NCBI GenBank assembly: GCA_023136205.1
Contig: JAGLRQ010000081.1
Location: 1 to 5,477 of the forward strand
DNA length: 5,477 nt
Direction of reading: 5' to 3'
Source: Candidatus Auribacterota bacterium
GTDB taxonomy: Bacteria; Auribacterota; UBA6266
Part shown: positions 195 to 5,272 of the stretch, piece after piece
How positions within the stretch are numbered: position 1 is the first letter of the stretch
Layout: every line of letters begins with the position of its first letter
Program-made: the position numbers and the translations under genes
The notes under the pieces: generated by a model
Database searches by the model: none
What the model saw: the letters and a program-made list of their open reading frames with translations, nothing else
What the model was told of the DNA's origin: nothing

Positions 195-917
195 GTGAAA
201 GAAATAATCCTTGATACAAAAGACTCTGAAAAAATATATGCCAACTGGTTTAAAAATGACAATTCAGGTGTAATCCTTATATGTCATGGGTTGCTTGAAT
301 ATAAAGATTCATCGACTTTCAGATCTATTTCAGGGGAAATAGCCAAGAATTTTGATGTTTTGACTATTGATATGAGAGGGCACGGGAAAAGCACAGGAAA
401 ATATACTTATGGAGCAAAGGAAGCTTTGGATATTCAAGCCGGGATTGATTTTTTAAAAACAAGGTATAGCAAAATAGTTCTCATGGGGTTTTCTCTTGGC
501 GCGTCAGTTTCTCTTGAAGCGGCTGTAAAGAATAAGTGTGTGGACGGCCTTATTTTAATAAGTCCGCCGGCTTCTTTCAGTAAAATAAGGCCTAAATTGT
601 GGACAGTTGCTGCTATAAAGACTGGTATAGGAAATATTGGGTCAGGCAAAAAAGTGTGGGGATTTAATGTTTTTATGAAAAAACCGAGTAATCTCGATAA
701 TATAAAGAAGGTCAAAATTCCTGTTCTTATCTTGCATGGTACGAAGGATTGGGTAATTAACCATCGCCACAGCATTGAACTCAAAGATGTAGCCACACAG
801 AATGTGAAACTGATTATTGTCAAAGACGGTACACATGCAGAATATATGTATAAGCAGGATGCTCAAAAATTTGTTAACACAATTAATGATTGGCTGGGTG
901 AAAAAGGGGTTAAGTAA
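195..917 (+). CDS. alpha/beta-fold serine hydrolase (esterase/lipase or S33-peptidase-like), cytoplasmic
   Basis: 240-aa ORF. The only in-frame start after the TAA at 177-179 is GTG 195, 10 nt downstream of GGAG (181-184). Oxyanion-type HG motif (ICHGL, res 29-33). Nucleophile elbow G-F-S-L-G with Ser100 (nt 492-494). LHGTKDW (Asp185) and DGTHAE (His214) give a Ser-Asp-His triad in canonical order and spacing. No signal peptide or TM segment. Confidence 0.85.
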   Translation: MKEIILDTKDSEKIYANWFKNDNSGVILICHGLLEYKDSSTFRSISGEIAKNFDVLTIDMRGHGKSTGKYTYGAKEALDIQAGIDFLKTRYSKIVLMGFSLGASVSLEAAVKNKCVDGLILISPPASFSKIRPKLWTVAAIKTGIGNIGSGKKVWGFNVFMKKPSNLDNIKKVKIPVLILHGTKDWVINHRHSIELKDVATQNVKLIIVKDGTHAEYMYKQDAQKFVNTINDWLGEKGVK

Positions 918-1082: not shown

Positions 1083-2939
1083 ATGGGATATTTAAGCCAG
1101 AATATAGACAGAAGGCGTTATATAAGAATTGATACCGTTTTGCCTGTTGCTTTTCAGCTTGTAGGCACTGATTCGGATGGCCCTCTGACAGATATTAAGC
1201 AGGGTTTTACCAGGGATATTAGCCGGAACGGCATGTGTCTGGTGATAAGGAATCTCGATAAAGAAACAGTGTCGTTGTTTGAAAAATCCGGCCATAAGGT
1301 TTTACTTCACATAGATTTAATCTATAAGAAAGCTCCGGTTCGTGTCGAGGGAAAAATCATTTCTTTCCACCAGGGGCGTTCTTCTCCCCCCAATGAGTTT
1401 GTCCTTAACATAGTTTTTACCGATATTGAGAAATCCGACGCGTCTTCCCTGGTACGTTATGCTCTTATAAGGAAAAACAGGATGCGTATTACCATCCTTT
1501 TTTCTGTTCTGGCGGGAATAGCTTTTATTTTCGCGACATGGAGGGGAATTAAGACAGAAGAAATGAAGCGTTTGACAGAAGATGCTTTCGCGAAGTTAAA
1601 GATTGAGAAGGTAAGTGTTGAGGAAAAATATGCCGGTTTTTATAATTCTAAGATGAAACTTGAAAAGAAGATAAAAATCTACGCGGAGAATCTTAAAGAA
1701 ATACAGAAAGTTGTGGAAGAAAAAGAACTTGCCGAGGAAACCCGGGGGAATGTTGAAGAGCAAATAGATGAAATTCAGGAGGCGAAGAAGTCTCTTGAGC
1801 GGGAATTAAAGAAGGTTTTAAGGAAAAAGGAATATTATGAGAAAGAAATCGCGAATCTAAGAGACAAATTTAAAAGCGATGAAGTTAGAATTACTTTTAA
1901 AAGCGGGGCTTCGATGATTGGTAAGGTTTTGTACCAGGGACGTGATAACATCAAACTCAAAATTCAGTATGGGATAATAGATGTAAATAAAGAAGAAGTA
2001 GATAAAATTGATTTTGTAACCTACGCGGAAAAAATAGCTGAAGAAGCAAAAGTAAAAGACCTCAGGATTTATCATTTCGAGAATAACGGTGTATGGCTGA
2101 ATATTACATGGATAAGCCAGAACCGGGATGTTAAAGAAATAGCAAAATTGAGAGAGTTTTTAAGGATATTGGAGATAAAAAAGATTTTCCTTGTAGTTAA
2201 AAGAGACGCGGGGTGGCTGCAGCCTCCCGGGAAACTTTCATTTGCCGGTTCTTTTATAAAAGAGATGAATAGGGGAAATACGAAATTCGAGTTTTATGCC
2301 TGCCTTAAAGGGCAGACTGAATTTAGTGACGAACCGGATACAGACCTATCGGGAGAATCTGATTACCGCGGCATAGTTGATACTGTGAAGGGACTCTGTT
2401 CAGAGTATCCGTTTGACGGTATACTATTAAACCTGGTTCCAGTGCCCAATGGAAACGAAATTTTCATTTCTCTTATAAAGGATTTGAAAAAGCAAGTTCC
2501 TTCAAAAAAAGTTTCAGTTGTCTCAATGGAATGGGGAAGTGAGGGTGAGGTTGATGTGTGGGACACGGATTATTACCGGGAGGTAACGTCTCTTGCCGAT
2601 TTCATAATTGTTCCCTGTTATGACGCTTATTTTGAAAATTCTGATATGTATATTTCATGGATCGATGAGCAAATAATTCAAATAAGCAATATTACCAAGT
2701 GCAATTTTCTTGTTGGAGTTTCAACCAGTAAAAAAACAAAGGAAGAACATAATCCTGTTATTGAAAATTTTGATAACGCTCTGGTTGGAATACGGTCTGG
2801 ATTAAACAATAAGGGTGCCGGCATTTCAAAGTTTGATGGGATCGCGGTTATGGGCAATTGGTCTACGACATCTGATGAGTGGAAAACATTTTTGTCACTA
2901 TGGGTTAAAAAGCCTTTCTATGTTAAAGAGGGGATCTAA
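1083..2939 (+). CDS. PilZ domain-containing single-pass membrane protein with coiled coil and C-terminal TIM-barrel-like (glycoside-hydrolase-like) domain
   Basis: 618-aa ORF, ATG 1083, with only a weak purine-rich SD (aagaagtga). PilZ signature pair RRRYIR (res 10-15, nt 1110-1127) and DISRNG (res 45-50, nt 1215-1232). Hydrophobic helix ITILFSVLAGIAFIFATW (res 136-153) preceded by RKNRMR. K/E-rich heptad-like region res 157-265. Beta-rich module res 266-312. C-terminal region res ~330-618 has eight alternating hydrophobic strand-like segments. All antisense ORFs in this span are short and low-complexity. Confidence 0.85.
   Translation: MGYLSQNIDRRRYIRIDTVLPVAFQLVGTDSDGPLTDIKQGFTRDISRNGMCLVIRNLDKETVSLFEKSGHKVLLHIDLIYKKAPVRVEGKIISFHQGRSSPPNEFVLNIVFTDIEKSDASSLVRYALIRKNRMRITILFSVLAGIAFIFATWRGIKTEEMKRLTEDAFAKLKIEKVSVEEKYAGFYNSKMKLEKKIKIYAENLKEIQKVVEEKELAEETRGNVEEQIDEIQEAKKSLERELKKVLRKKEYYEKEIANLRDKFKSDEVRITFKSGASMIGKVLYQGRDNIKLKIQYGIIDVNKEEVDKIDFVTYAEKIAEEAKVKDLRIYHFENNGVWLNITWISQNRDVKEIAKLREFLRILEIKKIFLVVKRDAGWLQPPGKLSFAGSFIKEMNRGNTKFEFYACLKGQTEFSDEPDTDLSGESDYRGIVDTVKGLCSEYPFDGILLNLVPVPNGNEIFISLIKDLKKQVPSKKVSVVSMEWGSEGEVDVWDTDYYREVTSLADFIIVPCYDAYFENSDMYISWIDEQIIQISNITKCNFLVGVSTSKKTKEEHNPVIENFDNALVGIRSGLNNKGAGISKFDGIAVMGNWSTTSDEWKTFLSLWVKKPFYVKEGI
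1104..1472 (+). other. PilZ (c-di-GMP binding) domain, residues ~8-130 of the 618-aa protein
   Basis: RxxxR (R11-R15) and D/NxSxxG (D45-G50) motifs about 30 residues apart at the N-terminus, followed by beta-strand-like segments (CLVIRNL, VLLHIDLIY, VRVEGKIISF, FVLNIVF) typical of the PilZ beta-barrel. Confidence 0.75.
1488..1541 (+). other. single transmembrane helix (residues 136-153)
   Basis: 18 consecutive hydrophobic or small residues. A basic cluster (RKNRMR) lies on the PilZ side, consistent with N-in topology. No other hydrophobic segment of TM length occurs in the protein. Confidence 0.75.
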
Positions 2940-2949
2940 TGCCCTGAAT

Positions 2950-3957
2950 TCACACTTTTTCTGCTGAACCGAGAACGTGTTCGTTTTTATGTTTATACAT
3001 ATCTATGAGAGCTTCGCGGGCAGGCCCTAGATATTTTCTCGGGTCGAACTCAGCAGGCTTTTCGGTAAATGTTTTTCTTATCATAGCTGTCATCCAGAGC
3101 CGCCCATCTGAATCTATATTTACTTTGCAGACAGCTGATTTTGCGGCTTTTCTCAACTGTTCTTCAGGTATACCTACTGTATCTTTTAAGGCGCCGCCGT
3201 TCGAGTTTATAATTTTTACCGCTTCAGGGGGAACGGATGAAGAACCATGGAGTACGATCGAGAATCCGGGAAGCTTCTTTTCAATTTCTTCAAGTATGTC
3301 GAACCTGAGTTCCGGCGGGACAAAGACGCCGTCCTTGTTTTTAGTGCACTGCTCCGGTTTAAATTTATTTGCCCCGTGAGAGGTTCCTATTGAGATAGCC
3401 AGGGAATCAACCCCTGTCCTTGTTACAAAGTCAATTACCTCTTCAGGCTGGGTATATATTGATTTTGCCGCCTGAACATCATCTTCAATGCCGGCGAGAA
3501 CCCCAAGCTCACCCTCTACCGTGACATCATATTTATGAGCAAGGTCGACAACTTTCTTTGTGAGGGCAATATTTTCCTCGTAGGAATGATGGGAGCCGTC
3601 AATCATAACGGAAGAAAATCCTGATTCGATACAGGATTTACAGAGTTCGAATGTATCTCCGTGGTCAAGGTGAAGAGCTATAGGTATTTGTTTAAGATTT
3701 TTTTCTTTAGCCATTTCTCTCATCATCGCGGCAGCGCCCTGTGCCATATATTTTAATAGTATCTGGTTCGCGTATTTTCTCGCTCCGCTGGAGACTTGCA
3801 GGATAACGGGAGATTGTGTCTCCACACACGCGGTAATGATTGCCTGAATCTGTTCCATGTTATTGAAGTTATAAGCGGGAACAGCATAGCCGCCATCCAT
3901 TGCTTTCTTAAACATTTCTTTAGTATTTACCAGCCCTAAGTCCTTGTAATTAATCAT
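2950..3957 (-). CDS. fba: class II (metal-dependent) fructose-1,6-bisphosphate aldolase, long anaerobe/Giardia-like form
   Basis: 335-aa ORF. ATG (rc of 3955-3957) is preceded by AAGGAGAG (rc of 3962-3969). Hallmark class II FBA blocks: AYNFNNMEQIQA, SPVILQVS, ALHLDHGD, GFSSVMIDGSHH, VEGELG, SIGTSHGANKF, VLHGSSSVP, KVNIDSD, FDPRKYLGP. Confidence 0.95.
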   Translation of the reverse strand: MINYKDLGLVNTKEMFKKAMDGGYAVPAYNFNNMEQIQAIITACVETQSPVILQVSSGARKYANQILLKYMAQGAAAMMREMAKEKNLKQIPIALHLDHGDTFELCKSCIESGFSSVMIDGSHHSYEENIALTKKVVDLAHKYDVTVEGELGVLAGIEDDVQAAKSIYTQPEEVIDFVTRTGVDSLAISIGTSHGANKFKPEQCTKNKDGVFVPPELRFDILEEIEKKLPGFSIVLHGSSSVPPEAVKIINSNGGALKDTVGIPEEQLRKAAKSAVCKVNIDSDGRLWMTAMIRKTFTEKPAEFDPRKYLGPAREALIDMYKHKNEHVLGSAEKV

Positions 3958-4021
3958 GATTCTCTCCTTTTGTAAGGCAGTTATGCGTTTCTAATGCAAA
4001 ATCCGGGATAAAATGAACCCC

Positions 4022-4030
4022 ATTATATCA
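4022..4030 (-). promoter_or_regulatory. candidate extended -10 promoter element for fba (TGaTATAAT on minus strand)
   Basis: rc of 4022-4030 reads TGATATAAT, a perfect TATAAT with the TGn extension, about 65 nt upstream of the fba ATG. The -35 region is poor (TTTGTT/CTTTGT), which extended -10 promoters tolerate. Confidence 0.4.
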
Positions 4031-4113
4031 GATTGTAAAAAATAACAAAGCCCAAAAATTAAATTTTGTTAGATTACTGTTTTTCTCTGCGGGTTTCCAG
4101 GCTAATAATCTTA

Positions 4114-4143
4114 TTGAAGAAATATACTTGCTAATGTTACTAT
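4114..4143 (+). promoter_or_regulatory. weak candidate promoter for lemA (TTGAAG-18 nt-TACTAT)
   Basis: TTGAAG at 4114-4119, 18-nt spacer, TACTAT at 4138-4143. Each hexamer matches consensus at only 4/6 positions and the spacer is 1 nt long. Confidence 0.2.
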
Positions 4144-4215
4144 AAGCGTGTCTGCGTGCCTGACTGTTGGTCATAACAGAAGATAAATCTCTTTTGAAGA
4201 GGAAGGAGGTATGAA

Positions 4216-4773
4216 ATGATAGTAGGTGTTATTCTTATAGTGTTGCTGTTGCTGATACCTGTTTTTATGGTTGTCGGTATATACAACGCGCTTATCAAGT
4301 TAAGAAACAGGGTAAAAAATGCCTGGAGCCAGATAGATGTTCAGCTTAAGAGGCGTTATGATTTGATTCCCAACCTGGTAGAAACTGCAAAGGGTTATTT
4401 GAAACATGAAAGGGAAGTTCTTGAAAATGTTACAAAAGCACGAACTCAGGCAATAAAAATTGACGAAGGTGTTGCCCAACAGGCTAAAGCCGAAAACTTT
4501 CTTAGCCAGACACTGCGCTCACTTTTTGCCGTAGTTGAGAATTACCCTGACCTGAAAGCTAGCCGGAACATGCTGGCAGTTCAGGAAGAACTGACTTCTA
4601 CTGAAAATAAAATTTCTTTCGCGAGACAGCATTACAACGATAGTGTGATGAAGGTTAATACGAAGATTGAAATATTTCCCTCGAATATAGTCGCGGGTAT
4701 GTTTAGCTTTAAGCAGGAAGAATTTTTCGAAGTTGAAGAAGAAGAAAGAAAAGCTGTGAAGGTTAAGTTTTAA
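4216..4773 (+). CDS. lemA: LemA family membrane protein
   Basis: 185-aa ORF. ATG 4216 lies 6 nt after AGGAGG (4204-4209). N-terminal TM helix ([21 protein letters not shown]), then the characteristic LemA block [54 protein letters not shown], and later ENYPDLKA and YNDSV. Confidence 0.9.
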
Positions 4774-4849
4774 TCCGCCTTCGCGAAATTTCCCGTACGT
4801 AAGTCCGTGGAGCTTCAGCAATCTGTTAAAGAAATAGCGTTGAGAAAAG

Positions 4850-4893
4850 AAAAAAGAAAGGAGGATGTATTAAGCATCCTCCTTTCTTTTTTT
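4850..4893. terminator. bidirectional rho-independent terminator shared by lemA (+) and the lipoprotein gene (-)
   Basis: Perfect 18-bp stem: 4850-4867 (AAAAAGAAAGGAGGATG region) pairs with 4875-4892. Loop is 7 nt (4868-4874, tattaag). The 5' arm starts with an A-run and the 3' arm ends in a T-run, so each strand reads as hairpin plus U-tract. It sits between two convergent stop codons (4773 and 4913). Confidence 0.8.
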
Positions 4894-4912
4894 AAATAAG
4901 ATGGAGCTAAAA

Positions 4913-5272
4913 TTATTTATTCATTGCCGCTCTTAGAGCATTCGCGTAAGTTTTAATAGCCGCGTCAAGTTTGGCTTTTGCCGCGTCGCGTTTAACTTTA
5001 GCGCGAAGAGAAGCTTTATACTTTGAATCTATTTCTTTTCTAGTTTTGTCCTTAACTTTTTCCTTTAGATAAGCCATCTTTGCTTTGCAAAGGGTTTTGT
5101 TGGCAGCACTGAATTCACTGCGCGCCCGATTTCTCGCGATTTTGAGGTTGAGAGTTTCATCCTCCACTCGCTGTGTCCGAACTTTTCTGACGGTTCTGCC
5201 AGCCGCGAAAGAACCAGTGCAGGAAACAAGAAAAACAATTAACAACAACGCGAGTCCGATTTTCTTAAGCAT
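4913..5272 (-). CDS. small basic alpha-helical lipoprotein, unknown function
   Basis: 119-aa ORF. ATG (rc of 5270-5272) lies 4 nt after AAGGAGGA (rc of 5276-5283). N-terminus MLKKIGLALLLIVFLVSC is an n-region, h-region and lipobox L-V-S-C (Cys18). The mature part is Lys/Arg/Ala-rich with no recognisable family motif. Confidence 0.7.
   Translation of the reverse strand: MLKKIGLALLLIVFLVSCTGSFAAGRTVRKVRTQRVEDETLNLKIARNRARSEFSAANKTLCKAKMAYLKEKVKDKTRKEIDSKYKASLRAKVKRDAAKAKLDAAIKTYANALRAAMNK
5219..5272 (-). other. type II (lipoprotein) signal peptide with lipobox LVSC
   Basis: Residues 1-18: basic KK at positions 3-4, an 11-residue hydrophobic core, then L-V-S-C matching the [LVI][ASTVI][GAS]C lipobox. 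The Cys18 codon is rc of 5219-5221. Confidence 0.7.

Follow-up and report, generated by a model that had tools for sequence, protein, structure and literature searches.

The DNA analyzed here is a 5,477-nucleotide stretch from a Candidatus Auribacterota bacterium (contig JAGLRQ010000081.1 of assembly GCA_023136205.1; hereafter the window). Its main gene encodes a protein of 618 residues in which a PilZ domain, predicted to bind cyclic di-GMP (c-di-GMP), is joined through one membrane helix, a helical stalk and a small beta module to a barrel resembling those of glycoside hydrolase family 18 (GH18). The coordinates of these parts and of the other features are given in Table 1. The window coincides, at 100% identity, with positions 8919-14395 of a metagenomic scaffold of 63,982 bp (ENA ERZ23498405 scaffold_219; locus L059). 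The same uninterrupted, full-length open reading frame (ORF) resides in at least seven independent assemblies (L001, L003, L008, L010, L011, L059 and L060), in one of them on a 1.99-Mb contig, and the fusion is therefore not an artefact. Only four proteins of identical architecture (P0001-P0004), with length and layout kept at 54-91% identity, were found in the initial homology search, beside PilZ-membrane helix-stalk proteins ending in other domains.

Table 1. Coordinates of the gene, of the predicted parts of its product and of other features. Positions are those of the window unless a locus is named.
Feature	Residues	Position	Strand	Remarks
PilZ-membrane helix-stalk-beta module-GH18-like gene	1-618	1083..2939	+	618 amino acids, ATG start, stop codon included; complete, uninterrupted ORF
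PilZ domain	9-126	1107..1460	+	c-di-GMP-binding-type beta-barrel; Pfam PF07238
RxxxR motif (RRRYIR)	10-15	1110..1127	+	predicted c-di-GMP contact
[D/N]hSxxG motif (DISRNG)	45-50	1215..1232	+	predicted c-di-GMP contact
Alpha-helix at the PilZ C-terminus and basic juxtamembrane stretch (...IRKNRMR)	117-135	1431..1487	+	continuous with the membrane helix; structure model and charge count
Single transmembrane helix	136-156	1488..1550	+	predicted N-in/C-out; only segment with a Kyte-Doolittle mean >1.6
K/E-rich heptad stalk	157-263	1551..1871	+	predicted extracytoplasmic; break at residues 214-217; heptad pattern and structure model
Five-strand beta module	267-311	1881..2015	+	modelled strands 267-272, 277-285, 289-294, 297-302, 306-311
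Divergent GH18-superfamily (beta/alpha)8 barrel	313-618	2019..2936	+	predicted non-catalytic; structure model, Foldseek, profiles
Degenerate beta4 motif (DGILLNLV)	445-452	2415..2438	+	DGvHlDiE (FDGvHlDiEP) in relatives, DGxDxDxE in GH18
PCYD	511-514	2613..2624	+	equals GH18 beta6 MxYD; Y and D kept, M to P
E561 (HxPxxEN, beta7-alpha7 loop)	561	2763..2765	+	E in 82/82 relatives, kept in the window protein
Alpha/beta hydrolase gene		195-917		flanks the PilZ gene on its upstream side
Class II fructose-bisphosphate aldolase gene		2950-3957		convergent with the PilZ gene; followed by LemA, then by a small lipoprotein gene
119-amino-acid ORF		4913-5272	-	lipoprotein-type signal LLLIVFLVSC, K/A-rich helical body
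GH9 gene of related loci		L010:3122-5974, L011:3125-5977, L001:7176-10004, L003:1-918		4-nt overlap with the beginning of the PilZ gene

The N-terminal part of the protein matches Pfam PF07238 at 29.1 bits (gathering cutoff 22.5, E 1.3e-6), over profile positions 1-99 of 102. Both c-di-GMP motifs of PilZ domains, RxxxR and [D/N]hSxxG as defined in 10.1101/814665, are present. Residues R11, R12, R15, D45 and G50 are invariant across eight diverse members of the protein family described below (alignment A2, N-terminal 160 residues). In the AlphaFold2 (AF2) model, six strands between residues 14 and 114 precede a helix at 117-131, an arrangement of the canonical PilZ type, and the predicted local distance difference test score (pLDDT) of the block is 88-95. 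The nearest solved relative of the N-termini of the family, according to a profile search, is the PilZ domain of MotI/YpfA (5vx6, E 2e-5). All the sequence and fold features by which a PilZ domain is recognized were found, and the protein is, as judged from them, a true PilZ-domain protein, the cytoplasmic N-terminus of which is a canonical, motif-complete predicted c-di-GMP receptor.

Hydrophobicity was assessed as the Kyte-Doolittle mean over 19 residues, with a threshold of 1.6. Windows above it start at residues 133-138 only (peak 2.02; the next best value elsewhere in the protein is 1.37). The segment is flanked by charges of +5/-0 in the 15 residues before it, which include IRKNRMR, and of +4/-4 in the 15 residues after it. 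In the full-length AF2 model (monomer, 57-row alignment, mean pLDDT 86.4, predicted template modelling score (pTM) 0.53) a single non-helical residue parts helix 117-131 from an 81-residue helix, 133-213, which takes in the membrane span as well as the stalk's first half; sensor and membrane helix are joined in this model without a flexible linker. Past a four-residue break (214-217) the stalk continues in a second helix, 218-263. Hydrophobic residues occupy 69-77% of its a and d heptad positions, and 12-29% of the others, with a register shift near residues 199-206. The matches of the stalk in Pfam are all weak, and most are to coiled-coil families. Its ~107 residues would span about 16 nm if fully extended, as estimated from helix length. 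The beta module has no Pfam match and one sub-threshold NCBIfam match (Lepto_7_Nterm, E 9e-4), and a similar module is present in P0005, a member of the family with another C-terminal domain.

Because of the single membrane segment, of the charge bias around it and of the membrane anchors carried by homologues of the barrel (see below), the protein is predicted to be a type II (N-in/C-out) membrane protein, with its C-terminal ~460 residues outside the cytoplasm. Much of this layout had been read from the letters alone in a first-pass annotation, and it holds: both PilZ motifs lie at the extreme N-terminus of a domain scoring above the PF07238 cutoff, RKNRMR is on the PilZ side of the sole hydrophobic segment, the K/E-rich heptad-like stretch shows the a/d pattern and is modelled as helices, and the beta module quoted there (ITFKSG...KIDF, residues 270-311) falls in the region where AF2 places five strands. 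The extracytoplasmic location assigned to the last ~465 residues agrees with the prediction made here, and the TIM-barrel-like C-terminal domain of carbohydrate-enzyme type was recovered by modelling, structural comparison and profiles, as follows.

Modelled alone (86-row alignment), residues 313-618 form a (beta/alpha)8 barrel, with pLDDT 92.4 and pTM 0.90. Foldseek matches in the PDB are mainly to GH18 proteins, at E 2e-9 to 1e-6 and template modelling scores (TM-scores) of 0.5-0.6, the best being SleL (4s3j, E 2.4e-9), along with chitinases and chitinase-like lectins. They include the non-catalytic GH18 proteins concanavalin B (6caf/1cnv), YKL-40 (1hjx/8r42) and SI-CLP (3bxw), at E about 1e-7. 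PslG (4zn2) is fifth in the ranking, and PslG, GH20 and GH164 barrels stand slightly below the GH18 proteins. Direct searches were far less informative. The window barrel does not match the Pfam GH18 family (PF00704) at E<=10, Pfam and NCBIfam scans of the window protein assign no family to it, and a single-sequence PDB search of the protein returned coiled-coil noise and one chitinase match at E 0.77. A word-indexed homologue search with the barrel alone gave P0002 only, and was used just to deepen alignments.

HMMER, run exhaustively with the barrel against 1.84 billion representatives, retrieved 361 relatives at E<=1e-3, the closest at 23-30% identity, with E down to 6e-24. Most are ~330-amino-acid proteins of Chloroflexota, Nitrospirota and Dependentiae; some from Chloroflexota and Dependentiae are labelled 'glycoside hydrolase family 18 protein', one from Nitrospirota is labelled hypothetical. 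Six of ten relatives scanned pass the Pfam GH18 cutoff (29.6 bits). The profile of the family matches PDB chitinases at E 8e-15 to 1e-9, 'gfdGvhldie' falling on the catalytic 'fDGIDLDWE' and 'vmaYD' on 'LMTYD'. The link to GH18 surfaced only through the exhaustive search, the profiles and the structure model; the barrel is too divergent for a direct Pfam match. On these grounds the barrel is assigned to a divergent branch of the GH18 superfamily. A hydrophobic segment starts within the first 80 residues in 98 of 148 stand-alone relatives, directly N-terminal of the domain in every relative inspected; the domain is therefore normally extracytoplasmic, which provides independent support for the N-in/C-out topology. 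The loci of two stand-alone relatives were examined, and feature housekeeping neighbours that give no hint of function. One further relative, P0105 (L061:5477-7522), carries a multi-membrane-span GT2 glycosyltransferase synthase fused N-terminally, and downstream of its gene come those for PIG-L deacetylase, WbqC and acetyltransferase/DegT, a gene content that suggests a locus for a polymer of the N-acetylglucosamine (GlcNAc) type.

The catalytic centre was inspected in an alignment of trimmed sequences (A4) including 82 relatives and four PilZ-fused proteins. Column 452, at the end of beta4, is Glu in 76 and Asp in 4 of the 82 relatives; in the four PilZ-fused proteins it is Val (window), Ala, Val and Phe. 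V452 is likewise the end of strand beta4 in the AF2 model. Column 448 is His in 65 of the 82 relatives, and Leu in all PilZ-fused proteins. Set against the GH18 motif DxxDxDxE, the window protein has V452 for the Glu, L448 for the second Asp and N450 for the third. Strand-end positions conserved in at least 88% of relatives are altered as well (M511P, P547S, Y590M), further changes are G378W, W407C and G409K, and 8 of the 24 positions conserved at >=85% in relatives differ in the window protein. Window barrel and relatives have in common W338, W343, D445-G446, D506, Y513, E561, W593 and W600; position 514 is D or N. A clade-specific residue of the beta4-alpha4 loop, E459 (NGNE), is kept in the four aligned PilZ-fused proteins.

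The Glu of beta4 is the proton donor in the substrate-assisted mechanism of GH18, and is the acid/base also in clan GH-A, where Glu residues lie on beta4 and beta7. It is lost here and needed in both schemes, and canonical hydrolysis is therefore unlikely. The barrel is probably a lectin-like pseudo-glycosidase, predicted from its catalytic motif to be no GH18 member in the functional sense, while its place in the superfamily stays. It is not decaying, being under purifying selection (dN/dS, the ratio of nonsynonymous to synonymous substitution rates, 0.19). The first-pass annotation had proposed an ectodomain either binding or processing polysaccharides; binding now appears the more likely of the two, and processing less so, given the loss of the beta4 Glu and of other strand-end residues.

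An active glycoside hydrolase relying on non-canonical residues (E561 with D506 or D514, or E459) seems quite improbable in this light. Under such a scheme c-di-GMP would switch the cleavage of an envelope or exopolysaccharide glycan on or off, and a role like that of BcsZ, PslG, PelA or PssZ would be fused to the receptor. The presence of E561 in 82/82 relatives, the retention of D445, D506 and Y513, the Asp or Asn at 514 and the E459 of the four PilZ-fused proteins would suit it, as would the selection acting on the barrel, the rank of PslG among the structural matches and a nucleophile Glu kept in the GH2_C version of the family (see below). Yet the acid/base position of both the GH18 and the clan GH-A scheme is hydrophobic here, H448 and four more conserved strand-end positions are altered too, and it is by this very loss that the known GH18 lectins without catalytic activity, also present in the list of structural matches, are defined.

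Selection on the gene was measured against the L008 orthologue, 90% identical. Over the whole gene dN/dS is 0.24; by part, it is 0.18 in the beta module, 0.17 in the stalk and 0.46 in the PilZ domain. The PilZ value exceeds those of stalk, beta module and barrel (0.17-0.19), where a conserved sensor joined to a degenerate output would have been expected to show the reverse. That the architecture is a product of misassembly or of wrong gene calling, or a fusion in decay and devoid of function, has a negligible probability. The sole basis for it is the metagenomic origin of all the sequences; the high-confidence AF2 models stand against it, and it is effectively refuted by the recurrence of the ORF in independent assemblies, long contig included, and by a dN/dS of 0.17-0.46 in every domain.

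The architecture is not a one-off. It belongs to a cassette, defined here by a PilZ domain with the motif [QE]GFT[RMK]D[IV][SG]x[GN], one membrane helix directly after the PilZ helix, an extracytoplasmic helical stalk and a glycosidase-like domain of ~300-450 amino acids, and genomes were scanned with the motif at one per GTDB species. The window protein carries the motif as KQGFTRDISRNG, and [QE]GFT[RMK]D is common to eight aligned cassette N-termini (160 residues). Cassettes were confirmed at 48 loci, most labelled Omnitrophota, about 12 Planctomycetia/Planctomycetales, four (L008-L011) Auribacterota-like. Their ORFs mostly encode 586-750 amino acids; a contig end truncates four of them, and another four are complete yet shorter. 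A single hydrophobic segment starts at about residues 122-196 in nearly all 48, the exceptions being one ORF with two such segments and one truncated ORF without any. A word-indexed search with the PilZ profile returned mostly short fragments and missed known full-length members, and its results served just to deepen alignments.

Clustering of the regions past the stalk yielded 37 GH76-like, 4 GH18-like and 2 GH2_C members. P0005 combines the PilZ-membrane helix-stalk unit with a GH2_C TIM barrel, P0006 and P0008 with a domain of the (alpha/alpha)6 type. In the GH76-like class, 10 of 27 members match Pfam GH76 (best E 1.6e-6), and the profile of the class matches an alpha-1,6-mannanase in the PDB (6u4z) weakly, at E 3e-4. 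Where the class (alignment A5, C-terminal 400 amino acids of 27 Omnitrophota cassette proteins) is weakly aligned with GH76, an invariant Gly-Pro (HSGPNIW) takes the place of the catalytic Asp-Asp of GH76 (FIDDMEW), which hints that this (alpha/alpha)6-type ectodomain also is without canonical catalytic residues. GH2_C cassettes have WNDAP in place of the acid/base WxNEP, and keep the nucleophile Glu. The same NDAP is found in a GH2_C-TPR paralogue lacking PilZ (L003:12021-12773), and is therefore no evidence that GH2_C has been inactivated. That all cassette ectodomains are dead enzymes is accordingly not established, given the NDAP of this paralogue and the weakness of the GH76 alignment. 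Homology between the Omnitrophota ectodomain and the GH9 enzyme linked to the gene in some lineages (see below) was rejected (BLASTP E 0.28).

As far as the sequences tell, sensor, membrane helix and stalk constitute a cassette that has been combined, by exchange, with three glycosidase-like ectodomains unrelated to one another. Since different ectodomains are swapped on one conserved N-terminus, it can be argued that the domain outside the membrane is the functional output. A variant found in P0007 and at L051 features an extra membrane helix (residues 10-35) ahead of PilZ, and a C-terminus of 462-470 amino acids that is not glycosidase-like; PilZ is still predicted to be cytoplasmic in both.

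The surroundings of cassette genes vary among lineages. At the loci of P0005 (L005:8288-10501) and L030, the GH2_C cassette lies in one cluster with a pair of further GH2_C genes, a CBM30-like gene and GH42, GT2 and GT1 genes, the last two lying 2-5 kb from the cassette gene in the P0005 locus. In 36 Omnitrophota loci (L012-L054), monitored within 4 kb of the cassette gene, a secreted thermonuclease-like protein is encoded downstream in 17 and prepilin-type (GFTL[VL]E) pilin-like genes lie upstream in 10-15; TolC-like genes were found in 9, transglutaminase/TPR genes in 9, phosphofructokinase genes in 11. Phosphofructokinase is encoded near the Auribacterota gene too.

At L001, L003/L009, L010 and L011, a gene for a protein of 942-950 amino acids precedes the PilZ orthologue, with an overlap of 4 nt. 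The product has a signal peptide, a CelD_N Ig-like domain and a weak GH9 match (39 bits). Translational coupling to a secreted GH9 protein suggests a shared extracytoplasmic function in those lineages. The GH9 gene is absent beside the PilZ gene in the window lineage and in L008, which also lack the DUF2157 and GDYXXLXY genes preceding GH9 in relatives, and the BioY, DUF4870, RRM and M48 peptidase genes. In the window lineage the PilZ protein has therefore been retained without a partner in cis.

Within 10 kb on each side of the window gene, as monitored in L059, genes are of the housekeeping type (phosphofructokinase, alpha/beta hydrolase, aldolase, LemA), except for one GT4 glycosyltransferase gene 3 kb upstream; exopolysaccharide operon, processive GT2, export and outer-membrane porin genes are all missing from this interval. 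Processive GT2, export and porin genes are likewise missing within 10 kb of the orthologues at L001 and L003. The gene content of the flanks rules out an exopolysaccharide operon around the gene for both window and orthologues. Exopolysaccharide genes beyond the window, which the first-pass annotation had envisaged as neighbours, are thus absent over these 10 kb, and the only linked glycan gene is that of the secreted GH9 protein in relatives, missing from the window.

These data bear on whether the protein may be a co-polymerase or scaffold like Alg44, belonging to a synthase-dependent system of polysaccharide secretion, in which PilZ, on binding c-di-GMP, would activate a membrane glycosyltransferase encoded elsewhere, and stalk and barrel would guide or hold the nascent chain in the periplasm. 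N-terminal PilZ, one membrane helix and periplasmic domain do follow one another in the order of Alg44 (10.1101/814665), the barrel relative P0105 has a GT2 synthase as fusion partner and a PIG-L deacetylase gene as neighbour, and glycosyltransferase genes occur near both the P0005 cassette (GT2 and GT1) and the window gene (GT4). The HlyD/membrane fusion protein (MFP) domain is missing, however, as are the GT2, export and porin genes around window gene and orthologues, and both stand-alone barrel relatives examined have housekeeping neighbourhoods. An Alg44-like role is, on balance, very unlikely.

Other features of the window touch the PilZ gene less closely. Upstream of it, no credible Rfam match to a riboswitch or other RNA element was found, and shuffled sequence contains promoter-like sites just as often. 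A hairpin of 18 pairs (G-T allowed) with a 7-nt loop and flanking A and T runs, at 4850-4892, lies between the convergent LemA gene (ending at 4773) and the 119-amino-acid ORF (ending at 4913), and looks like a bidirectional intrinsic terminator; Rfam yields only sub-threshold chance matches for it. Positions 3958-4215 and 4774-4912 are non-coding spacers. Relatives have there an ORF of ~158 amino acids (in the aldolase-LemA gap) and the M48 peptidase gene (after LemA), and the window lineage therefore carries a trimmed version of the locus. The ORF at 4913-5272 belongs to no Pfam family, and is conserved in position in relatives (119-120 amino acids).

Taken together, the best explanation for the protein seems an inside-out relay, by which cytoplasmic c-di-GMP would act on a lectin-like ectodomain; it is put forward tentatively, its probability falling a little short of even. 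The N-terminal RxxxR arm of PilZ domains closes over the ligand (10.1101/814665). Binding of c-di-GMP by PilZ would change the packing or the oligomeric state of the continuous helix, and this change may in turn alter which molecules the ectodomain binds, or keeps hold of, on the outer side of the membrane. The barrel could bind either a partner glycosidase or a GlcNAc-type glycan, belonging to the cell's own envelope, to peptidoglycan or to a substrate; for four related lineages, the translationally coupled, secreted GH9 enzyme would be the likely partner. Sugar binding at the surface of the cell may thus come under the control of a signal from within.

Several observations weigh against such a relay. 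For the stalk, the monomer model (57- and 46-residue helices, pTM 0.53) fits a hairpin as well as a parallel coiled coil in extended form. The GH9 gene is absent from the window lineage and L008, and the housekeeping neighbours of the gene in the window lineage give its function no contextual anchor. Non-canonical catalysis could still take place, with E561 invariant, D445, D506 and Y513 kept and E459 present. Lastly, the helix-tethered PilZ could act inside the cell only, with the ectodomain as an anchor.

Spelled out, this last alternative makes the ectodomain a passive anchor or landmark on cell-wall or surface glycan, and PilZ a device recruiting or releasing a cytoplasmic partner on c-di-GMP, with no signal crossing the membrane. 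PilZ domains usually act by protein-protein contacts through their C-terminal helix (10.1101/814665). A non-catalytic glycan-binding barrel on a stalk of up to ~16 nm, if extended, would suit a tether, the PilZ domain evolves under a higher dN/dS than the ectodomain (0.46 against 0.19, window versus L008), and Omnitrophota cassette genes adjoin pilin-like genes. In the protein, however, the C-terminal helix of PilZ is taken up by the join with the membrane helix, and a partner would find little surface left to contact. The exchange of three ectodomains on one N-terminus suggests an output outside the membrane, and no conserved gene for a cytoplasmic partner lies near the Auribacterota loci. 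A purely anchoring role is therefore considered unlikely.

The relay may be extended from the protein to the family. Omnitrophota and Auribacterota are thought to live attached to, or to prey on, other cells. The cassette might be a general inside-out c-di-GMP transducer of both phyla, in which PilZ occupancy is passed on through one continuous helix and glycosidase-derived ectodomains have turned into non-catalytic binders of glycans or partners; it would then switch attachment to surfaces, or determine whether secreted enzymes such as GH9 are held or released. The extension is suggested because the beta4 Glu is changed to Val in the GH18-like ectodomain and the catalytic dyad of the GH76-like one aligns, weakly, with Gly-Pro; it is possible, and rather doubtful.

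If the relay to the lectin-like ectodomain is real, it would represent a second, independent route of inside-out second-messenger signalling, operated by PilZ and one helix, and a bacterial case of a GH18 pseudo-enzyme recruited into signalling. If it extends to the whole cassette family, it would be the first transmembrane relay in which PilZ acts on a pseudo-enzyme as output, and could explain how small-genome bacteria of two poorly known phyla lacking cultured models couple their internal state to glycan interactions at the surface. Both soluble parts (residues 1-135 and 264-618) are of small size and modelled with confidence, which makes recombinant tests of binding and activity feasible without culturing the organism.

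A survey of PilZ proteins reports fusions to GT2, HlyD, REC, GGDEF, EAL, HD-GYP, MCP and CheC, and mentions a PilZ-containing Ser/Thr kinase; glycoside hydrolases are absent from the list (10.1101/814665). Full-text searches for PilZ together with glycoside hydrolases, GH18 or Omnitrophota yielded no account of the present architecture, and a genome paper on Auribacterota mentions neither PilZ nor c-di-GMP. No description of a PilZ-glycosidase fusion was found, in keeping with the first-pass annotation, which did not recognize the combination as a characterized class of effector.

Known c-di-GMP effectors, to our knowledge, act almost wholly within the cell, apart from LapD, whose degenerate EAL domain serves to pass the signal outwards, and from Alg44 and BcsA, by which polymer synthases are gated. 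Alg44, the alginate co-polymerase of Pseudomonas aeruginosa, must bind c-di-GMP at its PilZ domain for polymer to be produced, and is the only characterized PilZ protein that we know of with an N-terminal PilZ, a single membrane helix and a periplasmic C-terminus. Window protein and Alg44 both have a canonical cytoplasmic PilZ domain at the N-terminus, one membrane helix and a large C-terminal part predicted, in the former, to be periplasmic too. Where Alg44 has an HlyD/MFP part, and is encoded in the alginate operon with the GT2 protein Alg8, the window protein has stalk, beta module and GH18-like barrel; Pfam and NCBIfam scans found no HlyD, Biotin_lipoyl or MFP family in it at E<=1. The analogy with Alg44 drawn in the first-pass annotation consequently stands for the layout, and fails for the HlyD/MFP domain and for an adjacent synthase gene. 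PilZ domain, membrane helix and periplasmic domain of Alg44, and the dimerization of its PilZ through the C-terminal helices, are described in 10.1101/814665.

BcsA and BcsZ offer a second term of comparison, as PilZ there controls a glycan-handling membrane machine and a gene of an (alpha/alpha)6 endoglucanase family is linked (GH8 BcsZ there, GH9 in relatives here). In BcsA, PilZ is C-terminal to a multi-span GT2 protein and gates a cytoplasmic active site, whereas in the window protein, in which Pfam detects no glycosyltransferase domain, PilZ is N-terminal and any regulated event would occur outside the membrane. LapD of Pseudomonas fluorescens resembles the window protein in proposed logic only: binding of c-di-GMP inside the cell is relayed through the inner membrane to a non-catalytic periplasmic domain, which binds or releases an enzyme, the LapG protease there and possibly GH9 here. 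Its sensor is a degenerate EAL domain, it has two membrane helices and a HAMP relay, and it is not homologous to the window protein, in which no LapD-type domain was found in Pfam.

GH18 lectins, such as concanavalin B, YKL-40/CHI3L1 and SI-CLP, bind glycans without cleaving them. They share with the window protein a GH18-type barrel in which the beta4 Glu is replaced. They are soluble, secreted eukaryotic proteins that match Pfam GH18 directly, in contrast to the divergent window barrel, similar to them at TM-scores of 0.5-0.6 and tethered to the membrane on a predicted second-messenger receptor. The closest relatives in sequence are the stand-alone bacterial GH18-like proteins of ~330 amino acids, for which no functional study was found. 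They share the barrel and its Trp, Asp and Glu positions, and most have an N-terminal anchor; they differ in keeping the beta4 Glu (76/82) and the preceding His, and in being devoid of PilZ, stalk and beta module. Judged by its domains, the window protein is neither an Alg44 nor a BcsA nor a LapD. What would be new in it is a PilZ effector with transmembrane output on a degenerate GH18-like ectodomain, together with the cassette family to which it belongs and the overlap with a GH9 gene in its relatives.

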